Virus record (IMG/VR): IMGVR_UViG_3300040856_003054
Location: 1 to 64,000 of that record
Direction: 5' to 3' (one strand)
DNA: 64,000 nucleotides
Source: a virus
Part shown: positions 29,299 through 60,990 of the stretch, one piece after another
Layout of the letters: every line of letters starts with the position of its first letter
Numbering within the stretch: position 1 is the stretch's first letter
Notes under the pieces: generated by a model
What the model was told of the DNA's origin: nothing
What the model saw: the letters and a program-made list of their open reading frames with translations, nothing else
The model's database searches: none
Made by a program: the position numbers and the translations under genes

Positions 29299-29394
29299 CT
29301 AAATAATAATACCTGTGACCGGCAAACTTACAGGAGGAGGGTGAAAGTCCCTCCATTTTAATATAAATAATAATGCCGGTTACAGAGTAGAATT
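29299..29394 (+). ncRNA. Endonuclease-associated sRNA/leader cassette 1
   Basis: TAAATA; arm 29313-29324 complementary to 29374-29385; GGAGGG/CCCTCC hairpin; TATAAATA at 29362. Confidence 0.7.
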
Positions 29395-30087
29395 ATGTCT
29401 AATAGAAAATATTTTTATGTTTATTATTCTTATGAACCTTGGGGAAGAGGATACATAGGAAAAAGAGAATGTTGGTGTCTACCTGAAGAAGATATAAAAT
29501 ATTTTGGAAGTTTTACTGATAAAACATTCAATCCAAAAGAAAAAATTATATTACAAACTTTTGATACCAGAAAGGAGTCTTATGAAGCGGAAGAAAAATT
29601 GCATAAATTCTATGATGTGAAAAATAATCCACATTTTGCAAACAGAGTAAATCAATTTGCAACTGGATTTAGTCATAGGAGAAAAATATTAGATAAATCA
29701 TATAAACAAAATTTTATTGATATCGTTAAATCTTCATATTCTGTGTATGAAATTTTAATAAAATTGGGTATAAAACCTACCGGAGGAAGTAGTGTAAATA
29801 GAGTAAATTTGCTAATAAAGGAATTAAATTTAGACACTTCACATTTTAAAGTTCGTTCTAGTAAAAAAAGAAAAAAGACTCCCGAAGAAATAGAAAGAAT
29901 TAGACAAATGAATAAAGGAAATAAGTATAATCTGGGCAAAAAAAGAAGTGAGGAATCTAAAGAAAAAATGAGAAAAAGAAGAGAAGGATTGAAATGGTGG
30001 AACAATGGTAAATCAAATGTAATGAAAAAAGAATGTCCAGGAGAAGAGTGGAAACCTGGTAGATTGTATTATTGTAGAACTAAATAA
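29395..30087 (+). CDS. GIY-YIG (Seg-like) endonuclease, YVYYSYE subfamily
   Basis: YVYYSYEPWGRGYIG..YFGS; NUMOD3-like and WWNNG C-terminal modules. Confidence 0.85.
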   Translation: MSNRKYFYVYYSYEPWGRGYIGKRECWCLPEEDIKYFGSFTDKTFNPKEKIILQTFDTRKESYEAEEKLHKFYDVKNNPHFANRVNQFATGFSHRRKILDKSYKQNFIDIVKSSYSVYEILIKLGIKPTGGSSVNRVNLLIKELNLDTSHFKVRSSKKRKKTPEEIERIRQMNKGNKYNLGKKRSEESKEKMRKRREGLKWWNNGKSNVMKKECPGEEWKPGRLYYCRTK

Positions 30088-30098
30088 AATCAAAACCA

Positions 30099-30386
30099 AT
30101 GAAATATAAGATTTCTTTTTCTTATAATTGGTATGAAAGTGAGGAAGGTAGAGATATTATAAAAACATATTATATTAGTGGAGTTGCGTTTACTTTCGAT
30201 AATGTCTCTCCCATTTTTCAAGACCATCCAGAAATAATAATCCAAGCAAATCAAAATCTCACATATACACCAGAGTACTTTTACCAAAAATCATTTTATT
30301 TAATAAGTGAAGAGTGTCATCCACTGTTATTTGAGTTGGATATAGAAAATCCAGAAATGCTTGAAGAACTTGACAGTTTATCATAA
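30099..30386 (+). CDS. Hypothetical protein
   Basis: 95-aa ORF. Confidence 0.65.
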   Translation: MKYKISFSYNWYESEEGRDIIKTYYISGVAFTFDNVSPIFQDHPEIIIQANQNLTYTPEYFYQKSFYLISEECHPLLFELDIENPEMLEELDSLS

Positions 30387-30398
30387 ATACTTTATAAT
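30370..30398 (+). promoter_or_regulatory. Consensus sigma70 promoter for the tRNA
   Basis: TTGACA-N17-TATAAT. Confidence 0.9.
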
Positions 30399-30407
30399 CT
30401 TTTTATT

Positions 30408-30492
30408 GCTGGAGTTAGCGTAGAGGTCGAACGCACCGGTTTTGTAATCCGGATCCGAAAGGGCATCGCAGGTTCAAATCCTGTCTCCAGCT
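30408..30492 (+). tRNA. tRNA-Thr(UGU) with long variable arm
   Basis: Acceptor GCTGGAG/CTCCAGC, anticodon loop TTTGTAA, V arm TCC-GAAA-GGG, T arm GCAGG-TTCAAAT-CCTGT. Confidence 0.85.
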
Positions 30493-30511
30493 TGAGTTCT
30501 TTATAACTCCA

Positions 30512-30670
30512 ATGTCACTTATTTCACAACAAGACCGTCAAATGGTCATTGAAGCACTTGAATATTATGTTCAAAAACTTAAGGACGATAATTGCACAGA
30601 TGCTTCCATTACAGCATTCCAAACACTCCTTAACTGGGTCGAACTTGAGCATTTCAAGCATGAAGATTAA
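30512..30670 (+). CDS. Hypothetical protein
   Basis: Manual translation MSLISQQDRQMVIEALEYY... Confidence 0.6.
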   Translation: MSLISQQDRQMVIEALEYYVQKLKDDNCTDASITAFQTLLNWVELEHFKHED

Positions 30671-30833
30671 TTTATGGTTCTGTCCAGAGATGAATCAGTG
30701 GCGGTGGACGCTAACAGATTCTTCTCGTCCTATTCGTAAACAAGAATCTGGACAGAGACCATTTCTTCGTGATGCAATGAATGATGTTGCAAATACTGTA
30801 GAATATATGTTAGAATGCAAACAAAGTGAGTAA
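30660..30833 (+). CDS. Conserved cyanophage hypothetical protein
   Basis: MKINLWFCPEMNQWRWTL..QESG..AMNDVA. Confidence 0.7.
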   Translation: MKINLWFCPEMNQWRWTLTDSSRPIRKQESGQRPFLRDAMNDVANTVEYMLECKQSE

Positions 30834-30843
30834 AAATACTTAG

Positions 30844-31464
30844 ATGAAATCAGATTTTTATATAGATAGAGTAGGTAAAGAAGAAATCAAAGAACTTCTT
30901 TATACTCATCACTATCTTAAAGACGAATCAAAGGATTTTAAAAGTGGATATAATTACTCACTTTACCGCAAGTCATTCACAGACATCCTTAATATTGGCG
31001 GCAGTATTGGTGCTTGCGTTTTCAGCACTCTCCCAGTTCCAGAAATAGCAGTTGGTGCTTTTGGTTTACAAAGAAACCAGCAAGAGGGTATCTACGAACT
31101 CTCACGTTTGTGTATTCATCCAGATGTTCAAAAAGAAGAGTATAATATTACATCTTGGTTCGTCAGTCGTTGTATAAGGAGATTTAGAAAAGATGCCACA
31201 GTTCGTGCTATTCTTAGTTATGCTGACTTTTCTCACCACACTGGAGTCATATATCGTGCAACAAATTTCAAGTATTACGGTCTGACCGATAAGAAATCTG
31301 ATTTCTGGATTAAGCAATCCGATGGTTCATACATTAAACATTCAAGAGGACCAACAAAAGGTGTAGAGGGTGAGTGGAGAGAGCGTAGTCGCAAACATAG
31401 ATACTTAATGATATTTGATAAGGATCTGAAAAAAAGGTTGACATGGAAAGAAGAGAAGTGGTAA
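30844..31464 (+). CDS. Mom-like GNAT-fold DNA modification protein
   Basis: HHYL, YELSRL, ILSYAD..HTGVIYRATNF..G, KHRY. Confidence 0.75.
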   Translation: MKSDFYIDRVGKEEIKELLYTHHYLKDESKDFKSGYNYSLYRKSFTDILNIGGSIGACVFSTLPVPEIAVGAFGLQRNQQEGIYELSRLCIHPDVQKEEYNITSWFVSRCIRRFRKDATVRAILSYADFSHHTGVIYRATNFKYYGLTDKKSDFWIKQSDGSYIKHSRGPTKGVEGEWRERSRKHRYLMIFDKDLKKRLTWKEEKW

Positions 31465-31489
31465 AATAGTATGGTGTGAAGGAAGTGCG

Positions 31490-31523
31490 AAAGAGGAAAT
31501 CCTTATGGGGTTTCCTCTTTTTT
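31490..31523 (+). terminator. Intrinsic terminator
   Basis: AAAGAGGAAATCC..GGGGTTTCCTCTTT plus T tract. Confidence 0.85.
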
Positions 31524-31566
31524 CTTGTGATAAATAATCTATAATAGAACTTATCGTGCAAGCAAA

Positions 31567-34500
31567 ATGCCATTGTCAAGATTAGATAATTTCCTGAAGA
31601 ATGCGCGTGGAAATATCCTTTATGTAAATCCAAATGATTTAGATGCAACAGATAGCATTGAAAATCAGGGTAATTCACTTGCCCGACCCTTTAAAACAAT
31701 TCAACGTGCTTTAGTTGAGGCATCAAGATTTTCATATCAGAGAGGTCTTGATAATGATAGATTTGGTCAAACAACAATTCTTGTATATCCTGGCGATCAT
31801 TTAATTGACAATAGACCTGGATGGATTCCGGATGGTGCAAGTAGTTTTAAACTTAGAAATGGAACCACGTCAAGTGATTTCCCTCAGTTTGATTTATCGA
31901 CTAACTTTGATCTGACGACTGATGGTAATGCACTCTACAAACTTAACAGTATTTACGGTGGTGTAATTATTCCAAGAGGTACTTCTCTTGTTGGTCTTGA
32001 TCTCCGTAAGACCAAAATTCGTCCAAAGTATATTCCAAATCCTGAGAATGATAATATTGAAAGATCTGCAATTTTCAGAGTAACTGGTGCATGTTACTTT
32101 TGGCAGTATTCAATTCTTGATGGTGATCCAAGTAGCGTAGTATATAAAGATTATACAACTAACACATTTGTTCCTAACTTCTCTCACCACAAACTCACCT
32201 GTTTTGAGTATGCTGATGGAACTAATCCAGTAGATATTGATGATGCTTTCCTAACTTATAGTACAACCAGAACTGATCTGGACATTTACTATGAGAAGGT
32301 AGGACTTGCATATGGTCCTTCTTCTGGACGTGAAATCGAACCAGATTATCCTTCATCTTCACTTGATATTCAACCAAAGATTGATGAATTTCGTATTGTT
32401 GGTCCAACAGGCGGTGAAGTTGGTATCAGTAGCATCAGAGCAGGTGATGGAGTAACATCATCCACAGTGATCACTGTCACAACTACTGATGTATTTGAGC
32501 AACTTGCTGTTGATACTGCAATTCAAGTTAATGGAATTACTGCAACTGGATATGATGGTCAGTATGTTGTAACTGATGTTGTTAGTGCAAATGAATTTAA
32601 GTATCAGGTATCTTCTGCACCTTCAAATCCACTTCCAACACCAACAGGAGCAACAGTAAATCTTTCTGTTGATACAGTTTCTTCTGCTTCTCCATATATC
32701 TTTAACGTATCACTAAGATCCGTTTATGGTATGTGTGGTCTTCATGCAGATGGAGATAAGGCAGATGGATTCAAGTCAATGGTTGTTGCTCAATTCACTG
32801 GAATTGGACTACAAAAAGATAACAATGCATTTGTAAAATATGATCCAAATAGTGGAACATATAAGGATTCCACTTTTGCTGGAAATGAGAACATTCATAG
32901 TGATTCATTAGCAGTTTATAAACCAACATACGAAAACTACCATATTAAGTGTTCAAATAATTCATTCCTACAGATTGTTTCTGTATTTGCGATTGGATTT
33001 GCACAACACTTTGTTGGAGAAACTGGTGGAGATCAATCAATCACCAACTCTAACTCTAACTTCGGTGCTAAATCACTGATTGCATCTGGTTTCAGAAAGG
33101 ATGCATTTTCTAGAGATGATGTTGGTTACATTACTCATGTCATTCCACCAAAAGAACTCACTACTCCAACTACAAACATTGAATTTGATGCAATTGATGT
33201 TGCAGCAACTGTTGGAGTTGCATCAACCAATCGTCTATACTTATATAATAGAACTAACGAAGACGTTAGACCGGATAATGTTATCGAAGGATATCGTATT
33301 GGTGCAAAAGAAAATGATTCTATTCAGTGTCTGATCTCTCAAGGTGGGTCACCTATTGAGTATTCGGCAAGAATCATTATTCCTAATACTCAATTTACAT
33401 CTGATGAAGTAACTTCAGAAAAGAAATTTGTAGTAGGAAGATCTTCAGGTATCAATAGCATTTCTTCTAACGTTATTACTCTTACAAGACCACATAGTTT
33501 TATTGAAGGTGAATCAATTCGCTTCTTAAGTGATACTGGACAACTTCCTGATGGACTTGAGAATAATAGAATTTATTACTCAATTACTAGTGGCATCAAC
33601 ACAGATCAAATTAAGGTTGCAAAGACACTTAATGATGCGCTAAATGACCAAGAACTTACGATTAATAATAAGGGTGGATCAATCAATGTAGTTTCTAGAG
33701 TTTCTGACAAGAATTCTGGAGACATTGGACATCCAATTCAATATGATTCTTTACAAAGTCAATGGTATATTAACGTTGCAACTGCATCAACTGATAATAA
33801 TCTATACTCAACTATTGTATCTCTTGGTTCTTCTGTTCTTGGTGCCGCAACTCCAAGAACTTATATCACAAGACAACCAGATACAAGAAACCTTGCAGAT
33901 ACAATTTATAAAGTTAGATATGTAATTCCTTCTGGTTCTGGTATCACTTCTGCAAGACCTCCAATTGATGGATTTGTTATTCAGGAATCTGGTGATACTT
34001 CAGGAGCAACAAATGCTGAGGTTCAAAGTTACTTCAGTCCAACAACAGTTTCTCTGTCAAATGTAAGTGAGCAAAGAAACTTCAAGTTCATTTCAAATGT
34101 AACTTGGGATGGTACTTTTGCATATTATCAAACTGAACTTCCTCATAATCTATCTGTAGGATCTGTTGTTGAAGTTCTGAATGTAACCAGTACAAATAAC
34201 ACGACTGGTATTGCAAGTGCTGCATTTAACAATACATTTAATGTTGTCGGTGTCAGTAGTGCCAAGTCATTCCAAGTTGCTCTTGGAGAGAATCCTGGAA
34301 CGTTCACAAACGATCTTTCAAGTAGAACAACGTCTCTTCCAACATTTAGACGTAAGAGATTTAACGATACCTATTACATCTATCGTTCTCAAGAGATTCA
34401 ACGATATGTTCCAGGTGAGCAAGATGGTGTCTATCACTTAGTTGTTCTAAATGCATCTAACAAACCAACAGTAACACCATTCTCTGGACAAAACTTCTCA

Positions 34501-39752: not shown

Positions 39753-39802
39753 TTATAAATAGTTAAAATTAAAAAAGGTAGGCGCTCTCCTCCTTTAAGC
39801 AA

Positions 39803-40291
39803 ATGTCAAAAAGTAAAAAACATTTTTATGTCTATTATTCCTATGAACCGTGGGGAAGAGGTTATATAGGAAAAAGAGAATGTTGGTGTACTCCAGAAGA
39901 AGATGTAAAATACTTTGGTAGTTTTAGAGATAAGACATTTAAACCAACAGAAAAAATTATATTGGAAACATTTAGTAATGTAAATGATGCACTTAGTGCC
40001 GAATCTATGCTGCATTTTTTTTATGATGTAGATAATAATTCTCATTTTGTTAATACTTCAAAACAAACGACTACTAAATTTTATTTTAGTGCTTCCGGTA
40101 AAGATCATCCAAGATATGGAAAAGTAACTCCAAAAGAAGTTCGTGAAAAGCAAAGTAAAAGTATGATGGGTAAAAACAATCCAATGTATGGGAAAAAAAG
40201 ATGTCATAATGAAGAAACAAGATTAAAAATCAGCAAAAAAGTGAGAGAATATGAATTAAGAAAACTTCAACATCAATCTGGAGGTAACTAA
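39803..40291 (+). CDS. GIY-YIG endonuclease, YVYYSYE subfamily, with NUMOD3
   Basis: N-terminus nearly identical to 29395; GKNNPMYGKK; TATAAATA at 39754. Confidence 0.85.
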   Translation: MSKSKKHFYVYYSYEPWGRGYIGKRECWCTPEEDVKYFGSFRDKTFKPTEKIILETFSNVNDALSAESMLHFFYDVDNNSHFVNTSKQTTTKFYFSASGKDHPRYGKVTPKEVREKQSKSMMGKNNPMYGKKRCHNEETRLKISKKVREYELRKLQHQSGGN

Positions 40292-40293
40292 TC

Positions 40294-42672: not shown

Positions 42673-42684
42673 TAAGAGGTAGAT

Positions 42685-46549: not shown

Positions 46550-46570
46550 TATAATTGAGGAAATAAAAAA

Positions 46571-47813: not shown

Positions 47814-47858
47814 ATTTAAATATAATGCATATAAATTTCTAAAAATTATTTAGACCCC

Positions 47859-48548: not shown

Positions 48549-48659
48549 ATAATTACCTTTTCTTTTTATTAGATATGCAAAATAAGTAAAATAATAAATT
48601 CTATCAGAACTTCATAGTTCTAAATACTTTCACGCTAACATTTATTCATATAGAGGACT

Positions 48660-49079: not shown

Positions 49080-49085
49080 GAATCA

Positions 49086-49112
49086 AAAGGAGGTCTTAAA
49101 CCTCCTTTTTTA
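49086..49112 (+). terminator. Intrinsic terminator
   Basis: AAAAGGAGGT..ACCTCCTTTT plus T tract. Confidence 0.85.
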
Positions 49113-49138
49113 TTATCTAAATATTTAAAAAAAGACAA

Positions 49139-49474
49139 ATGGCAGCAGTCATAGCAGAAAACTTTGTAATGCAACAAGGAGAAGATTTCTTTAAGGATTT
49201 CGTTTTAACAAATCCGGATAAATCTTTAGTTGGAGTATCTTCATATACATCATCTGCATATATGGCAAAGTATGCAGGGGATACTACAACATATCCATTT
49301 ACCGTTGGTATTACAACAAGTACAAGCACCATTCGTATTTCAATGGCAAATACAGTGACTGCTGCTCTTGATTCTGGTAGATATTATTATAATGTCTTTA
49401 CTGTTGATGGTAGTTCTCAAAAAGTCAAACAAAGAGAGGGTAGTATCATTGTCAATGCGTCTGTTTTGAGTTAA
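49139..49474 (+). CDS. Virion structural protein
   Basis: QGEDF..GRYYY..EG. Confidence 0.7.
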   Translation: MAAVIAENFVMQQGEDFFKDFVLTNPDKSLVGVSSYTSSAYMAKYAGDTTTYPFTVGITTSTSTIRISMANTVTAALDSGRYYYNVFTVDGSSQKVKQREGSIIVNASVLS

Positions 49475-49761
49475 AATAAATATCTAAACAGTAGTTAAAT
49501 TATATAAGTGGCACTTAAGACACTTCAAAAACTGGCACACCAACCTTCCAGAACACCACTGGAAGGTTTTATAGTATCTGGAGACACACAAAGACCGATG
49601 AGGTACTCCACACTAGACAGATTGATTTTTGTCACATCCTTCGTCTGGATGATCCACTGGGGTGTTAAAGTATCCGAAGTGGCAATCAATGCTCTGATGT
49701 TGCCTTGACTCTACATAAAAGGACTTGATGATGCTTTCATTATACACCAGCGGGTACAACT

Positions 49762-50190
49762 ATGTACTCCCTTGACATCACTGGTTATGGTGCTCGTAAG
49801 AGACGCTGTGAGGACGCTGTAGCATGGTTCCTACAGAAATACCTACCCAGACATCATATCTACATTGAAATGCTTCACAGAGGTCTCCGTAGAGAGCAAT
49901 CCTATGGGTATTGTTCTGTGTCTGGTGCTATCTACAAACCAAGAGAGTTTCTGATTGAGATTGATCCTAAACTTGATCTTGAACTTTATACAAAAACAAT
50001 TCTACATGAAATGATTCACCTACGTCAATGGGTATCAGGAACACTCAAAGAGCGTAGGGGAAAGATGTACTACAAAGACATCAAGTGTGAGGATCTGGAT
50101 TACTGGGAACAACCTCATGAGATTGAAGCACATGGTCTTGAGGAATCCTATTACCACGACTACTTGACAGATACCCATCAATCCGTCTAG
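49762..50190 (+). CDS. HEXXH metallopeptidase-like protein
   Basis: TILHEMIHLRQW..PHEIEA. Confidence 0.8.
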   Translation: MYSLDITGYGARKRRCEDAVAWFLQKYLPRHHIYIEMLHRGLRREQSYGYCSVSGAIYKPREFLIEIDPKLDLELYTKTILHEMIHLRQWVSGTLKERRGKMYYKDIKCEDLDYWEQPHEIEAHGLEESYYHDYLTDTHQSV

Positions 50191-50249
50191 AATCACCTTT
50201 GTGAGGGTTGATAGAAAAGCTTTAAGAACCTTTAAGACACTTTAAAACA

Positions 50250-51861
50250 ATGATGAAGACCAAGAAACAACTGATTAATGTTCAACCCAAGAGTTCCAAG
50301 GCACGCAATAGGTTCATCAACCAAATGGATTCTCTTCACGCAATGGAAGTGGAGCAGGAAACTGATAGTCAACTCTTTGTCGTTTCTATCAATAAGAAGT
50401 ACTGTTTCTGGTTGAATAAGGAGAATGATTCTAACTGGGAAATTATCAAATAGATAGTATGATTGGATTACTTGCCACAACTATTATCAGTTGCAGTGAT
50501 GCTGTAAGAATTATCAACCGAATTTCAAATGTAATTGGTCTTTCTTATCAACAAAAAATTGAACTGATTCAAGTTATCAATCAACATATTCCAACTTGTC
50601 CCATTAAAATTATTTCTGATGAAAGACCAGAATCCAGTACCTGATAACGAATCCAAAGATGTAAAGTGGAATCGTGGATTGGACCTTTTTATAGAATCAG
50701 TTCATAAACCTGATAGTGAGCTTCGCCAAGCAGCCCACGACCAACGCTGTTACAATGAACTCCTAGAAGTTCGTGGCACAGTGCTAGAGTACCTTCATAC
50801 ATTAAGAAGGTATGAGTGGCAATGACAACGCAATACATTTACCTGATTATATTTTTTTGTATAGGATATTTGATTGTTACTGATGCGTCAGTTGCTAAAG
50901 GTTTTTATTTACTCATACAAGTCTTAAAGATTCAGTATGAGAAATACAGATGGATTATTATACATCATCCAAAGACACCTTGGGCGCGTTATTCAATGCA
51001 TCGACGTTCTATGAAACTTGCAGAAGAACTGATGAAAGAACTTGAGGACAGACAATAAACTGTCACAACACCACTTGATTTTCTTGTCAAGTGCTCTTAT
51101 AGTATAAACATTGAAACACCTTTAAAAATGTCTTATTCTGCTGAAGTCAAATTTTCTTTTGACGCTACTTGGACACCATCTTATAGTTCTTCATTTAATG
51201 ATGAGGATTTTATTCCCGAAGAACACTATCTGATTACTGCACCTGCTGCGGATTTGAACGCAAAGCAGTATTTCAAACTGTTTGAGAAGTTCATGCTCTG
51301 TGTGGGTATGAATCCTGCCAGTATTCGTAGTGGTGCAATGTCTCTGGTGTTTAATGATTGGACCAGTGAAGAAGAACAACGCAAGGTTTGTAAGGAATAT
51401 GAACTGACGATGGATGAAGACCTTGATAAGAAGTTTGAAGAATGGAAAGTGCGTGAAGAAGAGATTGCTCGTCTTCAAAAGATTACTGAGGAAACGATTG
51501 CTAAACACTATCAACAATCAGAACCAAAAGTTAAAGGTGATTGGGAATATACTGATGAAGAAGTGAAGCAAATGAACATGGAGAGTGGACAATGAAACTG
51601 ATTTCCTTTAAGCATCGTGAGGATTATGGTGATGAGTGGTATGTTCAAATCCTTCATAACAAACGCTGGGCACTACTTCAAGCATCAGTTTCTTGGAATG
51701 AATTTGCTGCTTGGCCTTATATTCAATTAAAATCAGGTAATGGCAGTCTATTGAATCTTATGTTCTGGGCTTATAAGTTTGGATTTGATATTGATGTTTT
51801 TTCTAGGACCTGGAACTTTGAATACCTTAATGAACTTGATGAGGAAGAAGAAACTAAATAG
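50250..51861 (+). other. Cluster of small hypothetical early genes (50250, 50459, 50619, 50816, 51128, 51592)
   Basis: Tightly packed co-oriented ORFs. Confidence 0.7.
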
Positions 51862-51956
51862 AAGTGCCTTAACTGACCGCAATCTGTAAGGTGGGAGGAG
51901 AGAAATCTCCTCCTTTGTAATATAAATACTAATGCGGTTAGTTTAAGAGTAGAACT
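51854..51956 (+). ncRNA. Endonuclease-associated sRNA/leader cassette 2
   Basis: TAAATA; arm 51868-51881 complementary to 51933-51947; GGAGGAGA-GAAA-TCTCCTCC; TATAAATA at 51921. Confidence 0.7.
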
Positions 51957-52853
51957 ATGGTAAATCCATATAGATTTTATACCTATGCCTATTTGCGTGA
52001 GGATAGAACTCCTTACTATGTTGGTAAGGGCACTGGAAAGAGAATATATTCAAAAGAAAAAAATATAAATCTCCCCAAAGATAAATCAAGAATAATCTTC
52101 CTCAAACAAAATATAACAGAAAAAGAAGCATTTAAGCACGAAATCTATATGATTGCCGTGTTTGGTAGAAAAGATTTAGGAACTGGTATTCTTTATAATA
52201 GAACTAATGGTGGTGATGGAATAAGTGGATTTAAACATAGTCAAAAATCTAAAAATGAAATGAGTGAAAAAAGAAGAGGTAAAAATAATGCATTTTATGG
52301 TAAAAAACATTTACCAGAAACAATAAAAAGATTAAGTGAAAATAAGAAAGGAAAATATGTTGGAGATAAAAATCCTTTGTTTGGTAAAAAACATTCACAA
52401 GAAACAAGAAATAAAATAAGTGAAGCAAATGCTGGAAAATATGTTGGAGATAAAAATCCTTTTTATGAAAAAAATCACTCACAAGAAACAAAAGATAAAA
52501 TAAGTAGAGCAAATAAAGGAAGAGTTCTATCTATTGAACTAAGAAATGAAATGAGTAAAAGAGTAAAAGGTGAGAATAATCCTATGTTTGGAAAAAATCA
52601 CTCACAAGAAACAAAAGATAAAATAAGTAAAGTAAGTAAAGGAAAAACTTGCTCCGATGAAATAAAACAAAAAATATCTTCCACACATAATAAACTTCTG
52701 CGTTTTATATCACCGACTGGAGAAGTTATAGAGGAATTCACTACAATTACTAAATTTTGTAAAAAATATAATTTACATAAATCCAATTTGATTAAATTGA
52801 TGAAAGGAAAAAGTAAAACTTGTAAAGGATGGACACTTTACAAACTGGAATAG
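51957..52853 (+). CDS. GIY-YIG-like endonuclease, YTYAYLRED subfamily, with NUMOD3 repeats
   Basis: YTYAYLREDRTPYYVGKG..LYNRTNGGDG; repeated NP.FGK.HSQET..KIS. Confidence 0.88.
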   Translation: MVNPYRFYTYAYLREDRTPYYVGKGTGKRIYSKEKNINLPKDKSRIIFLKQNITEKEAFKHEIYMIAVFGRKDLGTGILYNRTNGGDGISGFKHSQKSKNEMSEKRRGKNNAFYGKKHLPETIKRLSENKKGKYVGDKNPLFGKKHSQETRNKISEANAGKYVGDKNPFYEKNHSQETKDKISRANKGRVLSIELRNEMSKRVKGENNPMFGKNHSQETKDKISKVSKGKTCSDEIKQKISSTHNKLLRFISPTGEVIEEFTTITKFCKKYNLHKSNLIKLMKGKSKTCKGWTLYKLE

Positions 52854-52914
52854 GACACACCAAAATCTTGTATGAATGTCCTATAATGACTTCATATACA
52901 ACAAAACCAATCCT

Positions 52915-53184
52915 ATGAGATTTAGAAACATAGAATTTAGATGGAGTAAATGCAACAACAAGTATGAACTCGTCAAGTGGAATACTCCAACAGAAGATAG
53001 TTTCTTCAAAGATCCAACTTGTTATGTGATTGCCTTCTTTGATAAAGACAAAGAGGGTTATAATATGAGAACTATATCTTCAAGATTTTTTGAAGATAAA
53101 GATGCATTCGTAGTGGGAAAATACGCAATTGAGTTTCTCAACGAAACTTTTGAAATTGAAAGACAAGAAGAAGAACTTAAATAA
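52915..53184 (+). CDS. Hypothetical protein
   Basis: MRFRNIEFRW; follows an early promoter. Confidence 0.7.
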   Translation: MRFRNIEFRWSKCNNKYELVKWNTPTEDSFFKDPTCYVIAFFDKDKEGYNMRTISSRFFEDKDAFVVGKYAIEFLNETFEIERQEEELK

Positions 53185-53285
53185 ATAAAGATGCTTATGT
53201 GTGTCGCAACCAGAAGCAAAGATGGGGTGCTTTCGGGCACCTTTTCTTGTATAAATAGTATTGCGACACAACATAAAGCAGAACT
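53181..53285 (+). ncRNA. Endonuclease-associated sRNA/leader cassette 3
   Basis: TAAATA; arm 53192-53209 complementary to 53261-53280; GGTGCT-TTCG-GGCACC terminator; TATAAATA at 53250. Confidence 0.7.
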
Positions 53286-54014
53286 ATGGAACTCAAAGAG
53301 TATCATTATGTCTATTATTCCTATGAGGAATATGGTAGAGGATATTTTGGTAGTAGAACTTGTAAATGCCTACCAGAAGAAGATATAAAGTATTTTGGTT
53401 CTTTTAGTGATAAGACATTCAAACCAACTCAAAAAATAATACTCAAAAGTGATTATGCTACAAGAGAAGAGGCATATGCCGATGAGATTATTTTACAACA
53501 ATACTACAAAGTAGTGGAAAATCCACACTTTGCTAATAGAGCATATCAAACTTCTTCAAAATTTCATAATGGAATGACGACAGAAAAAGCAAAAGAATTG
53601 GGAAATAAGACAAAAGAACTTGGTGTAGGTATTCATTCACTTACTTACGAACAAAGGAGTGAATATGGTAAAAAATCAACCGAAATAGCAAAAAAACTTG
53701 GTGTTGGACTTTATGGTTTTACAAAAGAACAAAGAAGTGAAAATGGTAAAAAATCAAAAGAACTTGGTGTTGGTATTTTTTCTTATACAAAAAAACAATT
53801 GAGTGAAAATGGGTTTAATGGTGGAAAAAAAGCATATGAAATGAAAGTTGGGGTTCACGCACTTACCAGAGAACAAATGAGTGAAAATTCTAAGAAAGTT
53901 GCCTCGCAAAAATGGAAATGTCTTGAAACTGGTTTCATTTCTAATGCTGGGGGACTTGCTTGTTATCAAAGAAAAAGAGGAATAGACACCTCCAAAAGAA
54001 TAAGATTATCATAA
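53286..54014 (+). CDS. GIY-YIG endonuclease, YVYYSYE subfamily, with four C-terminal repeats
   Basis: YVYYSYEEYGRGYFGSR..YFGS; LGVG..T.EQ.SE repeats. Confidence 0.85.
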   Translation: MELKEYHYVYYSYEEYGRGYFGSRTCKCLPEEDIKYFGSFSDKTFKPTQKIILKSDYATREEAYADEIILQQYYKVVENPHFANRAYQTSSKFHNGMTTEKAKELGNKTKELGVGIHSLTYEQRSEYGKKSTEIAKKLGVGLYGFTKEQRSENGKKSKELGVGIFSYTKKQLSENGFNGGKKAYEMKVGVHALTREQMSENSKKVASQKWKCLETGFISNAGGLACYQRKRGIDTSKRIRLS

Positions 54015-54092
54015 GACACTTGGGAAACTGGCACAAGGGCATCTCCACAGGTGCCCTTTTTGGTCTATAATGACTTCATAAGAAACAAACCG

Positions 54093-56108
54093 ATGATTGA
54101 AATCACATTTACAAGAGAAGAACTCCGTCATCTTTATGATGTTCTTCTTAGAAATAATCTTCAAGTCAAGCAATCAGTAATGAATAAAATTGATGAAGAA
54201 CTTATTGCCGATGAAATCTATGAACTTCTTGGTGATCTTGAGTGTTTGGATCCTACTCTTGATGAGGAATGGCAGAACAAACTATGGTATGATGACCCAG
54301 AAGATGAGCACACTATTGCTGTGAAACGAAACCGTGACCTGTGGAATCGTCAAACGATTGCTGAGCTCAAAACTCTTATTGGTAAACTTGAAGAAAAATG
54401 AACTACCTCTGCCTTGTTGATGGTCTTGTAGAATACGCCAGCACTTCTGAAAGTTCCTTTGCTCATTACCAACTGATGTATGCCGAAGAACACCAAGATG
54501 CTGATGTTCAGTATCTCACACTGACTGATGAAGAGTATGATGCCATGTTCCCTGTGGAGGATGAAGAATGACTAACTGGAAAAAACTTATTCAACTAGAA
54601 ATGAATAGTTTTGATGAAACCTTTGATGATGTTGTGAGTTCTACTCTTACAAAAGAAGAACTCCTTGAAAATTTTGATGATGGTTATGGAGGAAGTGAAG
54701 GAGTTTCATTTACTCTTTGGACTACTAATCGTGTTTATTTCCCTGCGGTCTATGATGGTGCTGAATGGGTAGAAAGTGTATCACGCAATCCTGACGGAAA
54801 ACCAACACCTCATATTGGAGGACAATAAAAATGAAACTCTTTCAATACGATAAAAAAGTTTGGGAAAATGGTGAAACTGACCGCACTTGGCAGTTTGGCA
54901 TCTTCAACAATCGTTCATTACTTTGGGTGAATTATGAAAATCCCAGTAGTTTAGTTCATAGTAATGGTGGATTTCACATCATGCTCTCATTTTTTACTTC
55001 TTCTTCTCTTTTTGGAGTAGATTTTCAAGTTGGTAAATTTGGTTTAAGTTTTCATTTCTTTACTGAATACTGTTGAGGAGTGGGATGAATGAAAGTTTAT
55101 GATTACCGAATTGTAGAGAAACTTAATGTGGATACTATGAAACCTTATTTCATAATTCAAAAATACAATCTTCTTACACAAGAATATAACCTCCACTCAA
55201 ATGCACGTATTCAAACACTTGAAGAAGCACAAGAAGCAATACGACTAATCAGGAAATACAAAGAACCTATCTATCATTATGTGAAATGACTAACACCGCA
55301 TACCAAATCTGGGAAGCATTCAAAGCAGAACTTACACAACCAGCAACAGATGATATGAAAGAAGCACTGGCATCTTCTATTCGTACTCTTGCAGAATTTG
55401 AAGACATCAAACCAGTTTCTGTTGGACCTTGTGATGATACTTATGGTAGATGGGATAGAATAGAAACTATATCTCAGCAAGATTATAACTACGAAAAAGC
55501 ATTAACAATAAAAAAATCACAAGTATCTACTTACAGAAAAATTCTTAGTATTGCTGATGAACTTGAAAACCTAAACACTTTGGAGATTAACTAATGAAAT
55601 TTAATTATTATACAGAAGTTTTAAAAAATACATACTGTGAAGAATATAATTTTCACTTCATTTTAACCGAAGATGAAATTAGAAGGAATCTTCATACACG
55701 AGGACTTACTCTTAATTCTATATATGGTTTATTTCCACCAGATTCTCCTGATGATTATAGAATGAGAGCATCCATAGAAATTATTAGGGACTCTCTTTAT
55801 GGTGAGAATGTTGATTTAGGTATTGACTATAAGAAGAAGTATGAGGAACTTGTAGAACTTCTTGAACCATGTAAAATTGATGATATGCCCCCAAAAACAA
55901 CATTAAAAATGATTCTAAAATATAACAAATGAGTTATCGTTGGTTAAAAACAGAAGACCTAGAAAATGCTATTAGGCATCAAAACATTATTAATTCCAGA
56001 GTGAAACGAGGAGAGATTGAACAACCGACAGAATATTCTTATGTTGTGTGTGGTTGTGGTGATCCAGGATGTGGATTTATGAGTATTCATACAAAAGACA
56101 ATCCTTGA
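54093..56108 (+). other. Cluster of small hypothetical early genes (54093, 54398, 54568, 54831, 55089, 55286, 55594, 55929)
   Basis: Overlapping start/stop codons. Confidence 0.7.
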
Positions 56109-56175
56109 ACTGCCCACTGACCTCCCAAAGGTCGGTGATTTTCCTGTATAATGATTTCATACACAAATAACCCAA

Positions 56176-56667
56176 ATGAAGCACAAACTTCTCCAGAACA
56201 TCACTGAATATCGCAACTGGGCATGGTATGTCTATCAGTATTGGTATAACCATAAAAGTACCTTAACTCTATCAATTCTTGCGACTGATAAGGATCGTGA
56301 TGTTCGTTGTTGGGTTGCAAAACACCCAAACACAACAACAGAAACTTTAACAGTTCTTGTGACTGATGAGTATTGGGATGTTCGTTATTGGGTTGCACAA
56401 CACCCAAACACATCACAAGAAACTCTAGCAATTCTTGTGACTGATGAGGATTGGGTTGTTCGTTGTGCGGTTGCACAACACCCAAACACATCACAAGAAT
56501 CTCTAGCAGTCCTTGCGACTGATAAGTATCCTGTTGTTCGTATTTGGGTTGCACAACACCCAAACACATCACAAGAAACTCTAGCAATTCTTGCGACTGA
56601 TATGGATTCTGTTGTTCGTCGTTGTGTTGCAAAACTCCCACCCACATCACAAGAAACAGACTCTTGA
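56176..56667 (+). CDS. HEAT/LRV-like repeat protein
   Basis: Five 26-aa (78-bp) repeats LATD....VR..VA.HPNTS.ETL. Confidence 0.85.
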   Translation: MKHKLLQNITEYRNWAWYVYQYWYNHKSTLTLSILATDKDRDVRCWVAKHPNTTTETLTVLVTDEYWDVRYWVAQHPNTSQETLAILVTDEDWVVRCAVAQHPNTSQESLAVLATDKYPVVRIWVAQHPNTSQETLAILATDMDSVVRRCVAKLPPTSQETDS

Positions 56668-56825
56668 ACTGAATATGAAACAGTATGATGTCCCGAAGAA
56701 ACTCATTGAGTCTTCACAAGATGAGTCTCTTAAGGGTATTATGTGACACCTAAAGAACCGACCACTGACCTCCCAAAGGTCGGTGATTTTGTCGTATAAT
56801 ACTCTCATACACACAAACAACCCAA

Positions 56826-59800
56826 ATGACTTCCAAAATTCCTGCTTGTAAGAATTGTAAGCATTTTCAAGAAAGTCCTGATGAGATTTTCAGCACTTGT
56901 GCCCTTTATCAGTATGAGAAGGTTGATTACTTCAACGGCAAAGTGAGTGAGTATAATTGTCTTGCTCTTGCTATGAGGGACAGTGAAGACCATTGTGGTC
57001 GTGAAGGTAAGGACTTTGAGATGAAAGAGTTTGTAGAAGAGGAAGAAGATATTTCCTTCTGGGAATACTTCAAAGGATTTTTCACAAAGAGTTGGATGTT
57101 TTGATTATGACTGTTGCTGAAATCATTGAGAAACTCCATCAGTATCCACCTGATATGAGAGTTGAAATTACTGATGGATATAAGCTTCATTTCTATAGAG
57201 GTGATTTTGCTTTTCAACTCTTTGAGGGTGATGATGGAGAAACTTTTGTAGATATTGGTATTGGAGGATTTGATTATGACTGAACAACAAGAAACATTTC
57301 TCATTAACAAACTCAAAGAAATTGCAGGTCAAAAAACTTGCTATGAGATGTATGGAGACTTTTATGATGCTGTTCCACAAGCATCAACAAGAATTTTTAC
57401 TGATGGAATTGATTATGGTAAAATCAATCTTTGTAGAGAACTTTTGAAAGATTTGGGTGATGATTGACTTTCTCAAAGGATACCTATCCGTCATTATACT
57501 ATCTCTACTGATAGGCAAAGCAATTGTTCTTTCCACACCACCAGAATCTAAAGTTCATAATTGTATTCCAGCACAAAAAACTATTGTAAAATGACTAACG
57601 AAAAAATACTTGAACTTGCTGATGAATTGGAGGCACTCTAAATGAAAAACCTTGCTAACACTATTTTTATTTTAGTTTGGGTTACGGGTATGGTATTATC
57701 TCCCAATCTTCTTCTTAAAGGTGTCGCATTCTTTTTCCCACCATATTCACTTTGTGTTGTGGTTGAAAGAGTGATTACAACTTATGCTCCAGAACTTCTC
57801 AAATAATATATGAATAACCAAGAAGCAACAGCATCATTAGTTGCTACATTTTTTGCTATACTTTGTCTTGTTAGTTCTGCCTTTGGACTTCTCAATATGG
57901 GTTCTTATTTTGGAGCAAAAGAAGCAAAAAATCAAACCACAATTGAATGTATAGAAACACCTGAAAAATGTAAGCAAAGGTATGAGTATCTTAAACTTCG
58001 TGAAAAACTTGGAGAAAACTGATGAACTGGATGTGATGTTTAATGCTGGATGGGATGAATGTCTCAAAGAGATTGATGCTATTTGTGATGAATTGGAGGA
58101 ACTATGAAAGAACAAGCACAAATAATAAGAGAAGTAGCACGACAAGCACTTTACAGCACTCCTAACGACCAAGAGTGTGAAGTCCCCATTATGGTTGCTA
58201 CTCTTAAAAATCTTCGTGAGCAACTTACCCTCCCATACGGTGCTAGTGTTTGGAAGGATGAAAAAGGTATGTGGTATGATGCTGGACGAAAAGATTGCCT
58301 AAAAGAAATTGATGGTATTATTGATGAATTGGAGGCACTAAAATGACAAAACTCTACAATCGTCCTATGAACTTCTTTGAGAAACTTCATAGTGGTTGGT
58401 GGTGGATTGGGCAAATTTTTGGGGAATGGTGTTATACTATGTTTGACAAAAATGGAGAAGAGTTTGGAGGTTTCTTCTTTTATCTTCAAAGTGATTATGT
58501 TGCTTATGAACAGGATATGTATTACCAGGACACTTTCTAAACTGGTACAAGACCTCACCACAAACCCTGTGAGTGCCTTATAATACTCTTATACACACAG
58601 AAACCTGATGACTGAACTTACTCCCGAAGCACAAACAGTTGTGGATGCTTATGAGCAAACTACTGATAAGTATGCTGCTCTTGCTGCTGTTCTTTGTGCT
58701 GCTATTGATATTGTAGTTCCTGAAGAAGCAGAGGCACCGAAGGCACAGTTTGATTGTCCTCCCCATAAGTTATACAGTTTTAGAAAAGATGAGGAAAGGT
58801 GGGGATATGACCATAAAGACTATTTGAGGAGGCAATTTGCTCAAAACAAACTGGATATTCGTTGGGAACAACGGCAACAAACTCGTGCTTTGATGCTTGC
58901 TATTATTACTGAACTTGAGATTAAGTGAATGACTAATGACTGACGCAGCATACAAAGTTTGGGAAGCATTCAAGGCAGAATTGATTGTAGAACCCACAGA
59001 TGATATGAAAGAAGCACTAGCATCTTCTATTCGTGAGGTTGTTATTGAAGTAATACTTAAGTATATGCAGTATGCCGAATGGGAAATAGTCAATAAAATT
59101 ATGGAAGATATTAATGAACTTGCTGATGAATTGGAGGCACTATGAAATTTGACCCAGATTGGATACTTTTGACTATCCCTGTTTGTGTAATCGTTGCTGC
59201 TGGTGTTCTCACCTATGATGCTCAACAACAACGAGTAACATTCCAACAAACATACAACAAGAACCTGGAGTGTCGTCAATCACTCAAAGGACAAACGATG
59301 GCAAGAGTGAATGAAATTTGTGGTCCTGTTCCACAAATCAAAGATTTTACTGGGGGAAACTGAAATGTGTAAGGTTGAATTGGATGAACTTATTTGTTTT
59401 ATTGTTATTCCATTCACTTTTATGGGTATGATGGCATTTGCTAGCTGGCAAGGATACAAAAAAGGAATGAATGAAACTCTTATTTTGTGTGTAGAAAATC
59501 CCCAACAGTGTAAAACAATTTATGATCATTTGAAGTTGGAGAAAACTGATGTACGATAATGATAATGGTAAAAGCACTTTTATACTATTTCTTATTTTAG
59601 TCCCTGTAGTCGGTATATTTCTTGTGGGTTCGTCACTAGGTTATGATAATGGTAAGAATACTACCATTAAGTATTGTATTGAGCAACCCAAAGAATGTAA
59701 AACCACTTATGATTATCTAAAACTTCAGGAGAACCAGAAATGAAAGGATGGAAAGACATCTCACAAGAATTAATGGGAGCATACTACACAGACATTGATG

Positions 59801-60543
59801 AAGTGAGATTGGGCACGGATAGACCTGCAATTGCGAATGTCCTTAATGAATTAATCAATCAATTCAAAGAGGTTTATGAAATTGATGATCTTCTTGACGA
59901 TGATGGGGATTATCCAGTTGATTTTGTTATTGATGTGCGAGACATTAGAAAACTTATTTGGGAACTCGAAAAATGACCATCAATACCACACAAGTTCTTG
60001 AATTTTTATTTAAATTGCAAAAACTTCGTCTCTGTCCAGAAATAACTATCTTTGATGGAAATTTTATTATCCACTTTGATGATGTTCATGGTCGTGATAT
60101 GACTGAAAGTGTTATTATCACAAAAGAAAGTGTTTGGAATGGGTACGGATCGAGTTTTGATAAACTTATCAGTGTTCTTGATAAAAAAATAATGGAGCAA
60201 GAAAATGAATTACATTATACTTAAAACTGGTTTTGGTAAAGGTATATCTCTTTTCAAATCCACAGAACTAAAAACTTACCACAAAGACGAACTCCCAAAA
60301 GTTCTTTTAACTGTAGGTCAGGAGCTTCTTGATGAAGGGGGATATAATAATGTATATGATTATGAAAGAGATTGCTACCCAGAACCTATTCAAGATAGGA
60401 TTTTGGTTTGTGGAATCTCAACTACTATTGATGGGGAATATATTGGGAATTACATTAGATATCATATCGTTGAAGGTAAAATCAAACAATCTAATGGGGA
60501 ATATGAACTTTACCTCAAACTGAAAGAAAAGTTTGAAAAATAA
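56826..60543 (+). other. Cluster of ~20 small hypothetical early genes with internal paralogs
   Basis: Tightly coupled ORFs, several with TM helices. Confidence 0.7.
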
Positions 60544-60545
60544 CT

Positions 60546-60836
60546 ATGAGAAACTATAAGTTAGAAAAACTCCAAAATGGAGAAACATTCATCACGAGTG
60601 AGAAAGGAAACTCTATGGTTCCTCTTATTCATTCAGGACAAGAACATAAACTATCTCCCGCATCTGTTGAGGATGTAGAAGTCGGAGATATTGTGTATTG
60701 TAAGGTGAATGGAAAGTTTTATACTCATCTTGTAAAAGCAGTAGATACTAACAAAGGTTGCTTGATTGGAAACAATCGTGGTAGGATAAATGGATGGACT
60801 AAAAATGTGTATGGGAAGGTGGTGGAGGTTTTATGA
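60546..60836 (+). CDS. Peptidase S24/S26-like protein
   Basis: GNSMVPLI..GDIV..HLVK. Confidence 0.7.
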   Translation: MRNYKLEKLQNGETFITSEKGNSMVPLIHSGQEHKLSPASVEDVEVGDIVYCKVNGKFYTHLVKAVDTNKGCLIGNNRGRINGWTKNVYGKVVEVL

Positions 60837-60881
60837 TTGAACTGCGGATAGTTGAACCAAAAGATGATATATAAGAGTTGG

Positions 60882-60990
60882 TATAAATAATAATGCTCTA
60901 ATGAGTTCGCATCCATAAGAGTGGAAAAGGTGTCTTCAGGCACCTTTTCTTGTATAAATAGTATTGCGAACTCAATTTAGAAGCAGAACT
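60882..60990 (+). ncRNA. Endonuclease-associated sRNA/leader cassette 4
   Basis: TATAAATA at 60882; arm 60894-60911 complementary to 60965-60985; GAAAAGGTGTC-TTCA-GGCACCTTTTC; TATAAATA at 60953. Confidence 0.7.

Follow-up and report, generated by a model that had tools for sequence, protein, structure and literature searches.

Four homing-endonuclease-like genes in the first 64 kb of the 136,140-bp IMG/VR virus record IMGVR_UViG_3300040856_003054 (hereafter the window; guanine-cytosine (GC) content about 35%) are each preceded by a conserved unit of about 105 nucleotides (nt), in which an upstream RNA arm is complementary to the 5′ leader of the nuclease mRNA. We consider it probable, at roughly 70%, that this unit is a mobile regulatory cassette: in T4-type cyanophages resembling S-SRM01 it would move with free-standing homing-endonuclease genes, which it would insulate and whose translation it would limit through a mask formed in cis. 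In silico, the arms pair and covary, a late-promoter box, TATAAATA, is positioned between them, and a nuclease gene follows. The virus of the window is a T4-like cyanophage. Patchy nucleotide similarity relates the window to the Synechococcus myoviruses S-PM2, S-WAM1/2, S-RIM50 and S-SRM01, nearly all its long open reading frames (ORFs) lie on the + strand, and the late-promoter motif ATAAATA occurs 45 times on the + strand of the genome vs 2 times on the - strand.

At all four sites the cassette has the same order: [A/C]TAAATA (the first box), 4-5 bases, a first stem-loop (SL1) containing arm A, a second stem-loop (SL2), TATAAATA (the second promoter), 4 bases, arm A′, a purine-rich spacer and the ATG. 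The 5′ part of arm A belongs to the 5-7-bp local stem of SL1 and its 3′ part, ending with GCA, lies in the loop. SL2 is a GC-rich hairpin followed by a T-run and, at the four window sites, arm A′ starts with TGC. An earlier reading of the sequence alone (the original prediction) had placed this layout at these positions, and covariance-model matches were indeed obtained there, at 29298-29395, 51853-51957, 53180-53286 and 60882-60991, all on the + strand, with E-values of 3e-10 to 1e-16. The pairing that it had claimed within each copy is also recovered. When the four regions are folded as single RNAs, a long-range A:A′ stem encloses SL2 and TATAAATA, with z-scores of -4.8 to -6.8 and 0/200 shuffles as good. 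The pattern TATAAATANNANTGC has 5 matches at the four window sites, on the + strand; with one one-mismatch match on the - strand this makes 6, vs 0.70 expected, a number reached in 0/100 shuffles. The original prediction counted four copies. All four stand in the window, but the complete record holds 9 full cassettes, which the covariance model finds on the + strand with the same range of E-values (3e-10 to 1e-16). The exact pattern also finds four copies beyond the window, and the leader of the ninth cassette does not start with TGC.

Pairing of arm A with the nuclease leader

Related cassettes were collected by an exact-pattern scan of IMG/VR, which required only the T-tail, the second promoter and TGC and left the first box free. 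At least 119 stretches matched. Among the matches listed, on which the cassette counts given below (n = 104, 119 and 129) rest, 121 pattern matches yielded 113 with enough flank and 98 unique 240-nt contexts, to which 8 copies from the genome of the window (the own genome) were added. Arms, whose duplexes have -19 to -30 kcal/mol, were found in 104 of these 106 contexts; L082 and L113 were chance matches and were dropped. Five cassettes whose 240-nt context lacked an open ATG were excluded from the MAFFT alignment, from RNAalifold and from the duplex and SL1-swap tests, and own-genome cassette 99694 was excluded from alignment A1. Two covariance models were built on the 98-sequence MAFFT alignment and used to scan 100 of about 130 sources, in which they found 129 and 131 cassettes. 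Many contigs carry several cassettes, with up to 7 in one locus.

The original prediction had called for a covariance model of the regions upstream of the nuclease genes, and the models built give a clear signal. In the model alignment, double changes occur at 16/16 pairs of the A:A′ helix and 96.9% of the cells are paired. The covariation score is 0.600 vs 0.216 in shuffles (0/500 reach 0.600) and vs at most 0.079 with slid partners. Such an alignment leans towards the model, therefore independent checks matter. RNAalifold, applied to the unfitted MAFFT alignment, picks the same stem, with compensatory changes at 17/19 predicted pairs. Alignment-free duplex energies between domain and leader average -23.3 kcal/mol for cognate pairs and -11.0 ± 4.3 kcal/mol for non-cognate ones; of the 83 unique cassettes, 55 pair best with their cognate leader and 78 have it among their six best partners. 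These 83 cassettes fall into 29 pairing-specificity groups. Within the own genome, net dimer energies are -10.4 to -14.9 kcal/mol for cognate partners and mostly 0 to -7.9 kcal/mol for the others, the exceptions being one identical pair and one pair differing by a single compensated base pair. Finally, G-U combinations far outnumber A-C ones in the helix cells (105 vs 12), so that the constraint acts on the + strand RNA. The RNA-level pairing of the arms, first proposed from G-U pairs and bulges, is thereby borne out.

The second promoter reads TATAAATA and lies between the arms in 118/119 unique model matches, and arm A′ begins at its predicted start. In the 74/119 rows that include the ATG, the leader has 17-23 nt (a few nt more in the GAACTATG type), the helix stops 2-4 nt short of the ATG and positions -9 to -6 are occupied by a purine run; over the cassettes, the distance from helix to ATG ranges from 2 to 9 nt. 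The predicted accessibility of the start region is 0.24-0.56 in read-through RNA vs 0.38-0.78 in late transcripts, and it is lower in read-through RNA for all 9 own-genome cassettes.

These features suggest the following mechanism. Arm A would act as an anti-leader, able to pair with nearly the whole 17-27-nt nuclease leader including the Shine-Dalgarno-like purine run at -9 to -6. Incoming upstream transcripts would mostly terminate at SL2. Those reading through would contain both arms, and the resulting long-range helix would mask translation. Late transcripts initiated at TATAAATA, between the arms, would be devoid of arm A and translatable. In other words, we infer a repression of translation by the helix and a late activity of TATAAATA, according to the logic of I-TevI, segB and mobE with a terminator inserted in the loop. 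Because SL2 would stop incoming early transcription and a hairpin with TATAAT located after the nuclease stop codon could restart it (see below), the unit looks like an insulated insert.

Of 129 cassettes, 113 precede an ORF of at least 100 amino acids, and 112 of these 113 ORFs are homing-endonuclease-like: 110 are linked by similarity, mainly in their NUMOD3-type DNA-binding parts, and 2 more have an HNH-type N-terminus by eye. The N-terminal domains form six multi-member families, several GIY-YIG-like and two HNH-like, and two singletons. Identical leader cores occur with more than one N-terminal family in 12/58 cases, one core even with four families; therefore the cassette is an independent module, not tied to one nuclease. 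On these two points the original prediction has to be revised. It had confined the arrangement to GIY-YIG genes, and the families served include HNH types. It had also dedicated each small RNA to its own nuclease, whereas the same arms stand before different families, two pairs of own-genome cassettes share their specificity and cassettes within a contig show no more orthogonality than random pairs (P 0.52, see below). In the fetched loci, a biased sample, 153 nuclease N-termini were counted, 151 of them classifiable, and a full cassette was present in 139 (136 scored and 3 cut by the search window). In the same census, three related nuclease genes carry a type II layout, with arms and second promoter and without the first box. 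At least two others have a simple hairpin with the late promoter in its loop, and a few, including window gene 39803, have neither.

Five named phages were scanned with the model: S-SRM01, a freshwater phage available as an isolate, has 6 cassettes, Syn9, P-SSM2 and P-HM2 have 0, and S-PM2 gives one weak match (E 0.0055) corresponding to a terminator and a late promoter before a head gene, with no arms. None of the examined phages with a published transcriptome carries the cassette. BLAST of cassette 4 against a collection of named phages retrieved S-SRM01 only (2 records, one phage). An E-value scan of seven loci holding 7 cassettes against Rfam 15 found no family, the only rows being two transfer RNAs (tRNAs) and one chance microRNA row at E 0.35.

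Constraint on the two hairpins and on the first box

Upstream of the second promoter, the cassettes are remarkably uniform. From the predicted start at the first box to the second promoter there are 51-72 nt (median 58), always occupied by exactly two adjacent hairpins (104/104). In SL1, double changes occur at 5/6 pairs and 91.1% of the cells are paired. When the 3′ strand of SL1 is swapped between specificity groups, the energy goes from -6.7 to -3.7 ± 2.5 kcal/mol; 14.8% of the swaps match the cognate strength, as the stems have sequence types in common. The full A:A′ helix cannot form together with SL1; the 3′ strand of SL1 mimics the 3′ part of the leader. The seed in the loop of arm A has a predicted accessibility of at least 0.6 in 86/104 cassettes. 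Together with the covariation of the hairpin, this agrees with the exposed seed loop of the original prediction. SL2 follows SL1 with a gap of 0-2 nt in 104/104 cassettes and has a mean energy of -15.3 kcal/mol, with a T-run. Of the three sites covered by a simple terminator scan, SL2 is called at two, sites 2 and 3, and missed at site 4; over positions 51000-62000 as a whole, the same simple scan yields about what shuffles do, with 41 promoter-like matches vs 40.3 and 8 terminator-like matches vs 5.3. Two identical terminator-like hairpins (9-bp stem, 5-nt loop) were noticed 648 bp apart in a region of small ORFs, at 56115-56137 and 56763-56785.

The first box is under similar constraint. TAAATA is present in 104/104 cassettes in one register, though the fetch pattern left it free, and all six bases are individually retained in at least 118/119 unique model matches. 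The base before it is A in 70 cassettes, C in 34 and G or T in 0 (n = 104); the next base 5′ is unconserved, so that conservation starts there. Among the 119 unique matches, the box reads NATAAATA, the published cyanophage late consensus (PMC2984593), in 86 and NCTAAATA in 33. The predicted +1 is a purine in 101/104 cassettes, and the first paired base of SL1 lies at offset 10-12, the predicted start being 11, in 104/104. The register between first box and arm A matches that between second promoter and arm A′. A late-promoter motif had originally been claimed for both boxes. TAAATA is found in all of them, but in the window the first box is the full TATAAATA at site 4 only, AATAAATA standing at site 3 and CTAAATA at sites 1 and 2. 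Pairing of the first box with the AUG region was considered as a general explanation of the box and rejected, as it appears in the folds of sites 1 and 2 only.

CTAAATA is strand-biased in the genome (16 on the + strand vs 4 on the - strand) and, like ATAAATA, it lies 17-21 nt before the ATG of ordinary genes. Its distribution suggests that the phage employs it as a late-promoter variant beside NATAAATA. In the window, CTAAATA was noted at 892, 2919, 4592, 7042, 46150, 48619 and 49116, 15-33 nt upstream of ATGs (17-21 nt at 5/7); by eye, the ordinary genes concerned include psbD-like and glutaredoxin-like ORFs.

The cis mask requires neither SL1 nor the first box, and both are clearly constrained. 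With [A/C]TAAATA in fixed register, the 3′ half of arm A exposed in the loop of SL1 and SL2 adjoining, it may be supposed that the anti-leader is also present on a separate RNA of about 50 nt consisting of the two hairpins. Such an RNA would be initiated at the first box, or would form the 3′ terminus of transcripts coming from upstream, or both; even without a first box, upstream transcripts ending at SL2 would have SL1-SL2 as their 3′ end. It could dock by its loop on the 5′ end of the late mRNA, open SL1 and hide the ribosome site in trans. For arm A, no complement other than the late leader of its own gene was found. A functional trans-acting RNA of this kind, fully compatible with the cis mask, is put forward tentatively, the odds being slightly against it. 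As for transcript data, five metatranscriptome runs, represented by assembled contigs only, hold 0.05-0.37 of the sampled words, and the cover of 51000-62000 by the four that were compared with this region is fragmentary and low. No listed piece bridges a cassette there, and such contigs cannot show starts, ends, strand or level.

Weighing of the explanations and comparison with known systems

The role of the free RNA is the point on which explanations diverge most. If a trans-acting small RNA (sRNA) were the main function, the first box would be a working late promoter delivering a stable RNA of about 50 nt (SL1 and SL2) alongside the nuclease mRNA. Its loop seed would bind the 5′ end of the mRNA, SL1 would open and the Shine-Dalgarno-like run would be masked, and the resulting threshold would hold the late nuclease dose low; this can coexist with the cis mask. 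We give such a function somewhat less than an even chance. It would account for a first box as strictly conserved as the second, for the equal registers of the two boxes relative to their arms, for a predicted start at the base of SL1, for the covariation of a hairpin that is unnecessary for the cis mask, for the exposed seed and for the gain in dimer energy of cognate partners. Moreover, an RNA begun at the first box would end at SL2 or read through masked, and so be untranslatable for the nuclease; selection on the box would therefore imply a use for the short RNA. The contrary explanation is that everything acts in cis. The first box would then be kept as a supplier of stop codons, as an AU-rich entry site for RNase E, or as a site from which polymerases terminating at SL2 occlude the second promoter, and SL1 would just prevent arm A from disturbing the folding of the terminator, or make the 3′ ends of mRNAs from upstream more stable. 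In 64/111 cases the box does contain the stop codon of the upstream ORF, the two hairpins are nearly contiguous throughout, related nuclease genes have simple promoter-in-loop hairpins or type II cassettes devoid of first box, and a cis mask is the published reading of comparable structures (PMC2677866, PMC2988022). However, TAAATA is retained in the remaining 47/111 cases, where the stop lies upstream of the box. The exclusion of G and T before TAAATA is demanded neither by a stop codon nor by AU-richness, and the constant distance of four bases (N4) between the box and a purine where SL1 begins resembles the geometry of a promoter and its start. A purely cis-acting device appears unlikely to us. 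It may also be imagined that the arms are a DNA-level inverted repeat, serving as a protein operator or as a recombination or hairpin site for mobility without any RNA helix. T4 intron endonucleases repress their own late promoters via operators resembling homing sites (PMC2988022), and the arms here flank a promoter. Against this stand the strand-specific excess of G-U over A-C, the bulges in the arms and the orientation of 9/9 own-genome cassettes on the transcribed strand; in addition, arms common to unrelated nucleases cannot be the particular target site of each enzyme. The palindrome was rejected on these grounds and we regard it as very improbable. Even less credible is an RNA cofactor or guide bound by the nuclease, one of the alternatives of the original prediction. 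The proximity of an RNA element to a nuclease gene is all that speaks for it, while the cassette is followed by six unrelated N-terminal families including two HNH types, leader cores are shared between families (12/58) and arm A has no complement other than its own leader; this reading was rejected since the cassette serves unrelated catalytic domains.

Several observations weigh against our own interpretation, that is, the cis mask with a possible free-RNA layer. For the cis mask, a good terminator in the loop may make read-through RNA rare and the mask thereby partly redundant. The helix leaves the AUG itself uncovered in most copies, and the predicted change in accessibility is moderate. 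Prevalence figures are biased upwards because the fetch pattern demanded the T-tail and the second promoter, and the model-derived alignments A2 and A3 lean to the fitted structures. For the free RNA, 34/104 first boxes are CTAAATA, one step off the NATAAATA consensus (PMC2984593) and a putative promoter only. The overlap with the upstream stop codon means that conservation of the box may partly have another cause, and the three type II cassettes have arms and second promoter with no first box. The notion of private regulators meets a further difficulty: cassettes on one contig are no more orthogonal than random pairs, cross-reacting pairs amounting to 10/82 within contigs vs 1179/9098 between contigs (permutation P 0.52, a test of low power), so that no depletion of cross-reacting cassettes is seen.

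The core of the cis mask is known from other phages. In the T4 genes I-TevI, I-TevII, I-TevIII and segB and in Aeh1 mobE, early and middle transcripts hide the ribosome-binding site in a stable RNA structure, which late transcripts are unable to form because of the position of the late promoter (PMC2988022). A cis stem on read-through RNA, which the original prediction listed among its alternatives, is therefore an established mechanism and explains the helix and the second promoter without any new assumption. Here too, a helix over the ribosome-binding region would form in transcripts started upstream, TATAAATA would give late transcripts without the 5′ arm, and the regulated gene is a free-standing or intron-borne homing endonuclease. 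The helix spans the leader to 2-9 nt before the AUG, from which occlusion is deduced, and the predicted late promoter lies between the arms. The segB gene of T4 lies in a tRNA cluster, and one cassette of the window does so as well. Unlike in I-TevI, segB and mobE, about 60 nt separate the arms, with an intrinsic terminator between them, the 5′ arm belongs to a conserved local hairpin preceded in fixed register by an additional late-promoter-like box (the first box), and the whole is a sequence-conserved, shuffled module (129 matches in 100 sources) rather than a gene-specific hairpin.

A metagenomic precedent also exists. Dassa et al. (2009) described hairpins in 15/16 endonuclease 5′ untranslated regions (UTRs) of 'fractured gene' loci from ocean metagenomes, ten of them including TATAAATA. 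Two conserved motifs are mutually complementary on the stem, and the authors' reading was translational control in cis (PMC2677866). Compared by description only, these hairpins are probably the same family or a sister family; the available extracts of that article make no mention of an upstream promoter box, an internal terminator, a local hairpin or a free RNA. The original prediction knew of no description of the arrangement. This holds in part, since the core logic in T4 and the hairpins of 2009 were known, and no description of the first box, SL1, the internal terminator or the free RNA was found in the literature searched. In the extracts consulted, a 2025 review of phage sRNAs gives only CfrI and Rfam motifs for cyanophages (PMC12197685), and the S-CREM1 paper contains nothing on the cassette (PMC9964418). 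CfrI of cyanophage S-PM2 is, like the present element, a cyanophage non-coding RNA tied to a homing endonuclease gene. It is an antisense transcript of about 225 nt on the opposite strand, spanning the endonuclease gene and psbA (PMC2984593; PMC12197685), whereas the element described here, of about 50 nt, lies upstream on the same strand and is complementary to the leader only; S-PM2 has no such cassette. The PeSL cassettes of T4-type phages are likewise small conserved terminator/promoter modules of hyperplastic regions that undergo modular shuffling (PMC4122927). They have early sigma-70-type promoters and, as far as the extracts go, no anti-leader pairing, whereas both boxes here are of the late TAAATA type with no conserved -35/-10 pair. 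The words 'late promoter' and 'cyanophage' each have 0 occurrences in the PeSL text searched (PMC4122927).

The original prediction had likened the arrangement to a type I antitoxin in tandem orientation. In type I toxin-antitoxin systems, sRNAs such as those of hok/Sok, tisB/IstR-1 and zorO/OrzO act on the 5′ UTR of the toxin from a nearby separate gene. The resemblance lies in a putative RNA, short and structured, that would act on the translation of a potentially harmful gene next to it through limited complementarity to that gene's leader. It does not extend to membership of that family. The targets are nucleases of 215-298 amino acids with NUMOD3 instead of small hydrophobic membrane peptides, the RNA gene stands on the same strand as its target, in tandem with it, both RNAs would be late phage transcripts and nothing points to a logic of addiction or killing.

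As selfish genes, homing endonucleases need enough expression to spread without harm to the phage that carries them. The solution of T4, a hairpin hiding the ribosome site until a late promoter bypasses it, would here have become a portable conserved module with its own terminator. Common to at least six nuclease families and present in up to nine copies per genome, this module helps to explain how nuclease genes settle in cyanophage early operons and leave those operons undisturbed. The trans-acting sRNA is a sharp prediction beyond known cis control, the core control logic being already known. The strictly conserved additional late-promoter box (the first box) and the covarying hairpin that presents the anti-leader amount to the prediction of a new class of phage sRNAs. 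It might be a large family of late-expressed, toehold-like RNAs of about 50 nt, with at least 29 pairing specificities in 83 unique cassettes, masking nuclease mRNAs in trans, although we would not quite lay even odds on it. If true, selfish nuclease genes would carry along a dedicated RNA dose limiter when they move and, to our knowledge, this would be the first class of trans-acting sRNAs described in T4-like phages. The many natural arm/leader pairs with low predicted cross-talk would also offer a ready-made set of orthogonal riboregulators of practical interest. The element, absent from Rfam, could become an Rfam family.

Nuclease genes of the window and neighbouring elements

The positions of the cassette parts and of the four nuclease genes are collected in Table 1.

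Table 1. Parts of the four cassettes of the window and the genes that follow them
Feature	Position	Strand	Basis
Cassette 1, first late-promoter-like box CTAAATA, abutting the 3′ end of tRNA-Leu (tRNA 29226-29299)	29299-29305	+	sequence, covariance model
Cassette 1, SL1, CCTGT...ACAGG stem; arm A CTGTGACCGGCA (29313-29324) in 5′ strand and loop	29312-29334	+	fold
Cassette 1, SL2, GC-rich terminator hairpin GGAGGG...CCCTCC and T-run	29336-29359	+	fold
Cassette 1, second late promoter TATAAATA	29362-29369	+	motif
Cassette 1, leader: arm A′ TGCCGGTTACAG (29374-29385) and spacer to ATG	29374-29394	+	fold
Homing-endonuclease-like gene, 230 amino acids, N-terminal family 2, NUMOD3	29395-30087	+	
Cassette 2, first late-promoter-like box CTAAATA, overlapping the TAG stop of upstream ORF 51592-51861	51854-51860	+	sequence, covariance model
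Cassette 2, SL1, GCCTTA...TAAGGT stem; arm A CTTAACTGACCGCA (51868-51881)	51866-51892	+	fold
Cassette 2, SL2, terminator hairpin and T-rich tail	51893-51918	+	fold, terminator scan
Cassette 2, second late promoter TATAAATA	51921-51928	+	motif
Cassette 2, leader: arm A′ TGCGGTTAGTTTAAG (51933-51947) and spacer to ATG	51933-51956	+	fold
Homing-endonuclease-like gene, 298 amino acids, N-terminal family 0, GIY-YIG-like fold, 4 NUMOD3 motifs	51957-52853	+	
Cassette 3, first late-promoter-like box AATAAATA, overlapping the stop of upstream ORF 52876-53184	53180-53187	+	sequence, covariance model
Cassette 3, SL1, TGCTT...AAGCA stem; arm A TGCTTATGTGTGTCGCAA (53192-53209)	53192-53218	+	fold
Cassette 3, SL2, terminator hairpin (core 53224-53243) and T-run	53219-53248	+	fold, terminator scan
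Cassette 3, second late promoter TATAAATA	53250-53257	+	motif
Cassette 3, leader: arm A′ TTGCGACACAACATAAAGCA (53261-53280) and spacer to ATG	53261-53285	+	fold
Homing-endonuclease-like gene, 242 amino acids, N-terminal family 2; best match of the model is the I-TevI catalytic domain	53286-54014	+	
Cassette 4, first late promoter box, full consensus TATAAATA	60882-60889	+	motif, covariance model
Cassette 4, SL1, GCTCT...AGAGT stem; arm A TGCTCTAATGAGTTCGCA (60894-60911)	60894-60922	+	fold
Cassette 4, SL2, 12-bp terminator hairpin with T-run	60923-60952	+	fold
Cassette 4, second late promoter TATAAATA	60953-60960	+	motif
Cassette 4, leader: arm A′ TGCGAACTCAATTTAGAAGCA (60965-60985) and spacer to ATG	60965-60990	+	fold
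Homing-endonuclease-like gene, 215 amino acids from ATG 60991, N-terminal family 0, NUMOD3	60991-61638	+	

Three of the four window genes match the PHROGs family 'homing endonuclease' (phrog_314) and three match Pfam NUMOD3. Gene 53286-54014 matches neither and was placed by its alignment with N-terminal family 2 and by its fold. The four genes had been announced as GIY-YIG nucleases. Predicted fold and motif agree with this, but the Pfam profile is reached only below threshold: at a relaxed threshold, LEM-3 GIY-YIG scores 17-19 bits (cut-off 27) in 2/4 genes and nothing is found in the other 2. The N-terminal structure model of family 2 (predicted local distance difference test score, pLDDT, 78) aligns with the I-TevI catalytic domain at Z 6.2 (root-mean-square deviation 2.6 Å over 76 residues), with PD-T4-3 at Z 5.6 and with the UvrC GIY-YIG domain at Z 4.8; Foldseek gives no row at E <= 0.001 for it. 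For the model of family 0 (pLDDT 75), the top 12 Foldseek rows are all GIY-YIG, with probabilities of 0.47-0.97 and E-values of 0.07-0.95. A sequence search of the PDB found no match for 53286-54014 and, for 51957-52853, only a row for the I-TevI DNA-binding domain, at E 0.053. Family 2 has invariant Y8/Y10, Y20-x-G22, E67 and N79/N84 and near-invariant R24; family 0 has invariant Y8/Y10, Y20, Y21, G23 and E62 and near-invariant R29, catalytic roles being assigned by eye in both. With their middling scores, the models support a GIY-YIG fold for the four genes.

A fifth nuclease gene, 39803-40291 (feature 39754-40291; 162 amino acids, phrog_314), belongs to the N-terminal family of 29395 and 53286 and lies among large structural-type ORFs. 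It has TATAAATA 41 nt upstream, with no arms, no first box and a different local hairpin.

The surroundings of the cassettes call for a few remarks. A tRNA-Leu(taa) ends at 29299, where cassette 1 starts; because the cassette begins exactly at the end of the tRNA, SL1-SL2 at this site forms the 3′ trailer of tRNA-Leu. By eye, four cassettes on other contigs (L036, L086, L065 and L105) also follow apparent tRNA 3′ ends. A tRNA-Thr(tgt) at 30408-30492 lies 320 bp downstream of the first nuclease gene, which therefore sits inside a small tRNA cluster. Around cassette 4, metatranscriptome contigs of related phages join 58606/58613 to 61636/61641, omitting about 3 kb with the cassette and its nuclease gene. 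The skipped stretch ends on the right at the nuclease stop codon. With short flanks and a likeness threshold of 90%, these joins do no more than hint at a presence/absence polymorphism of the stretch 58606-61641.

At 5/9 nuclease genes of the genome, the stop codon is directly followed by a conserved element, GGACACTT..AACTGGCAC..GC hairpin..TTTT..TATAATGACTTCAT, located at 52854-52900, 54015-54075 and 61639-61700 of the window and from 67855 and 69745 onward in the genome. It looks like a PeSL-like combination of a terminator-like hairpin and a sigma-70-type -10 box (TATAAT), which could restart early transcription after the insert.

A second type of cassette was noticed at 88340-88460 of the genome, outside the window, and on two other contigs (L026, about 2000-2110; L059, about 7940-8050). 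Its order is GTGGGCAGCAA..arm..GCGTAAGTCCCAC, TTTTAT, TATAAATA, complementary arm and ATG; the upstream TAAATA box is absent and arm A lies within the loop of a terminator-like hairpin.

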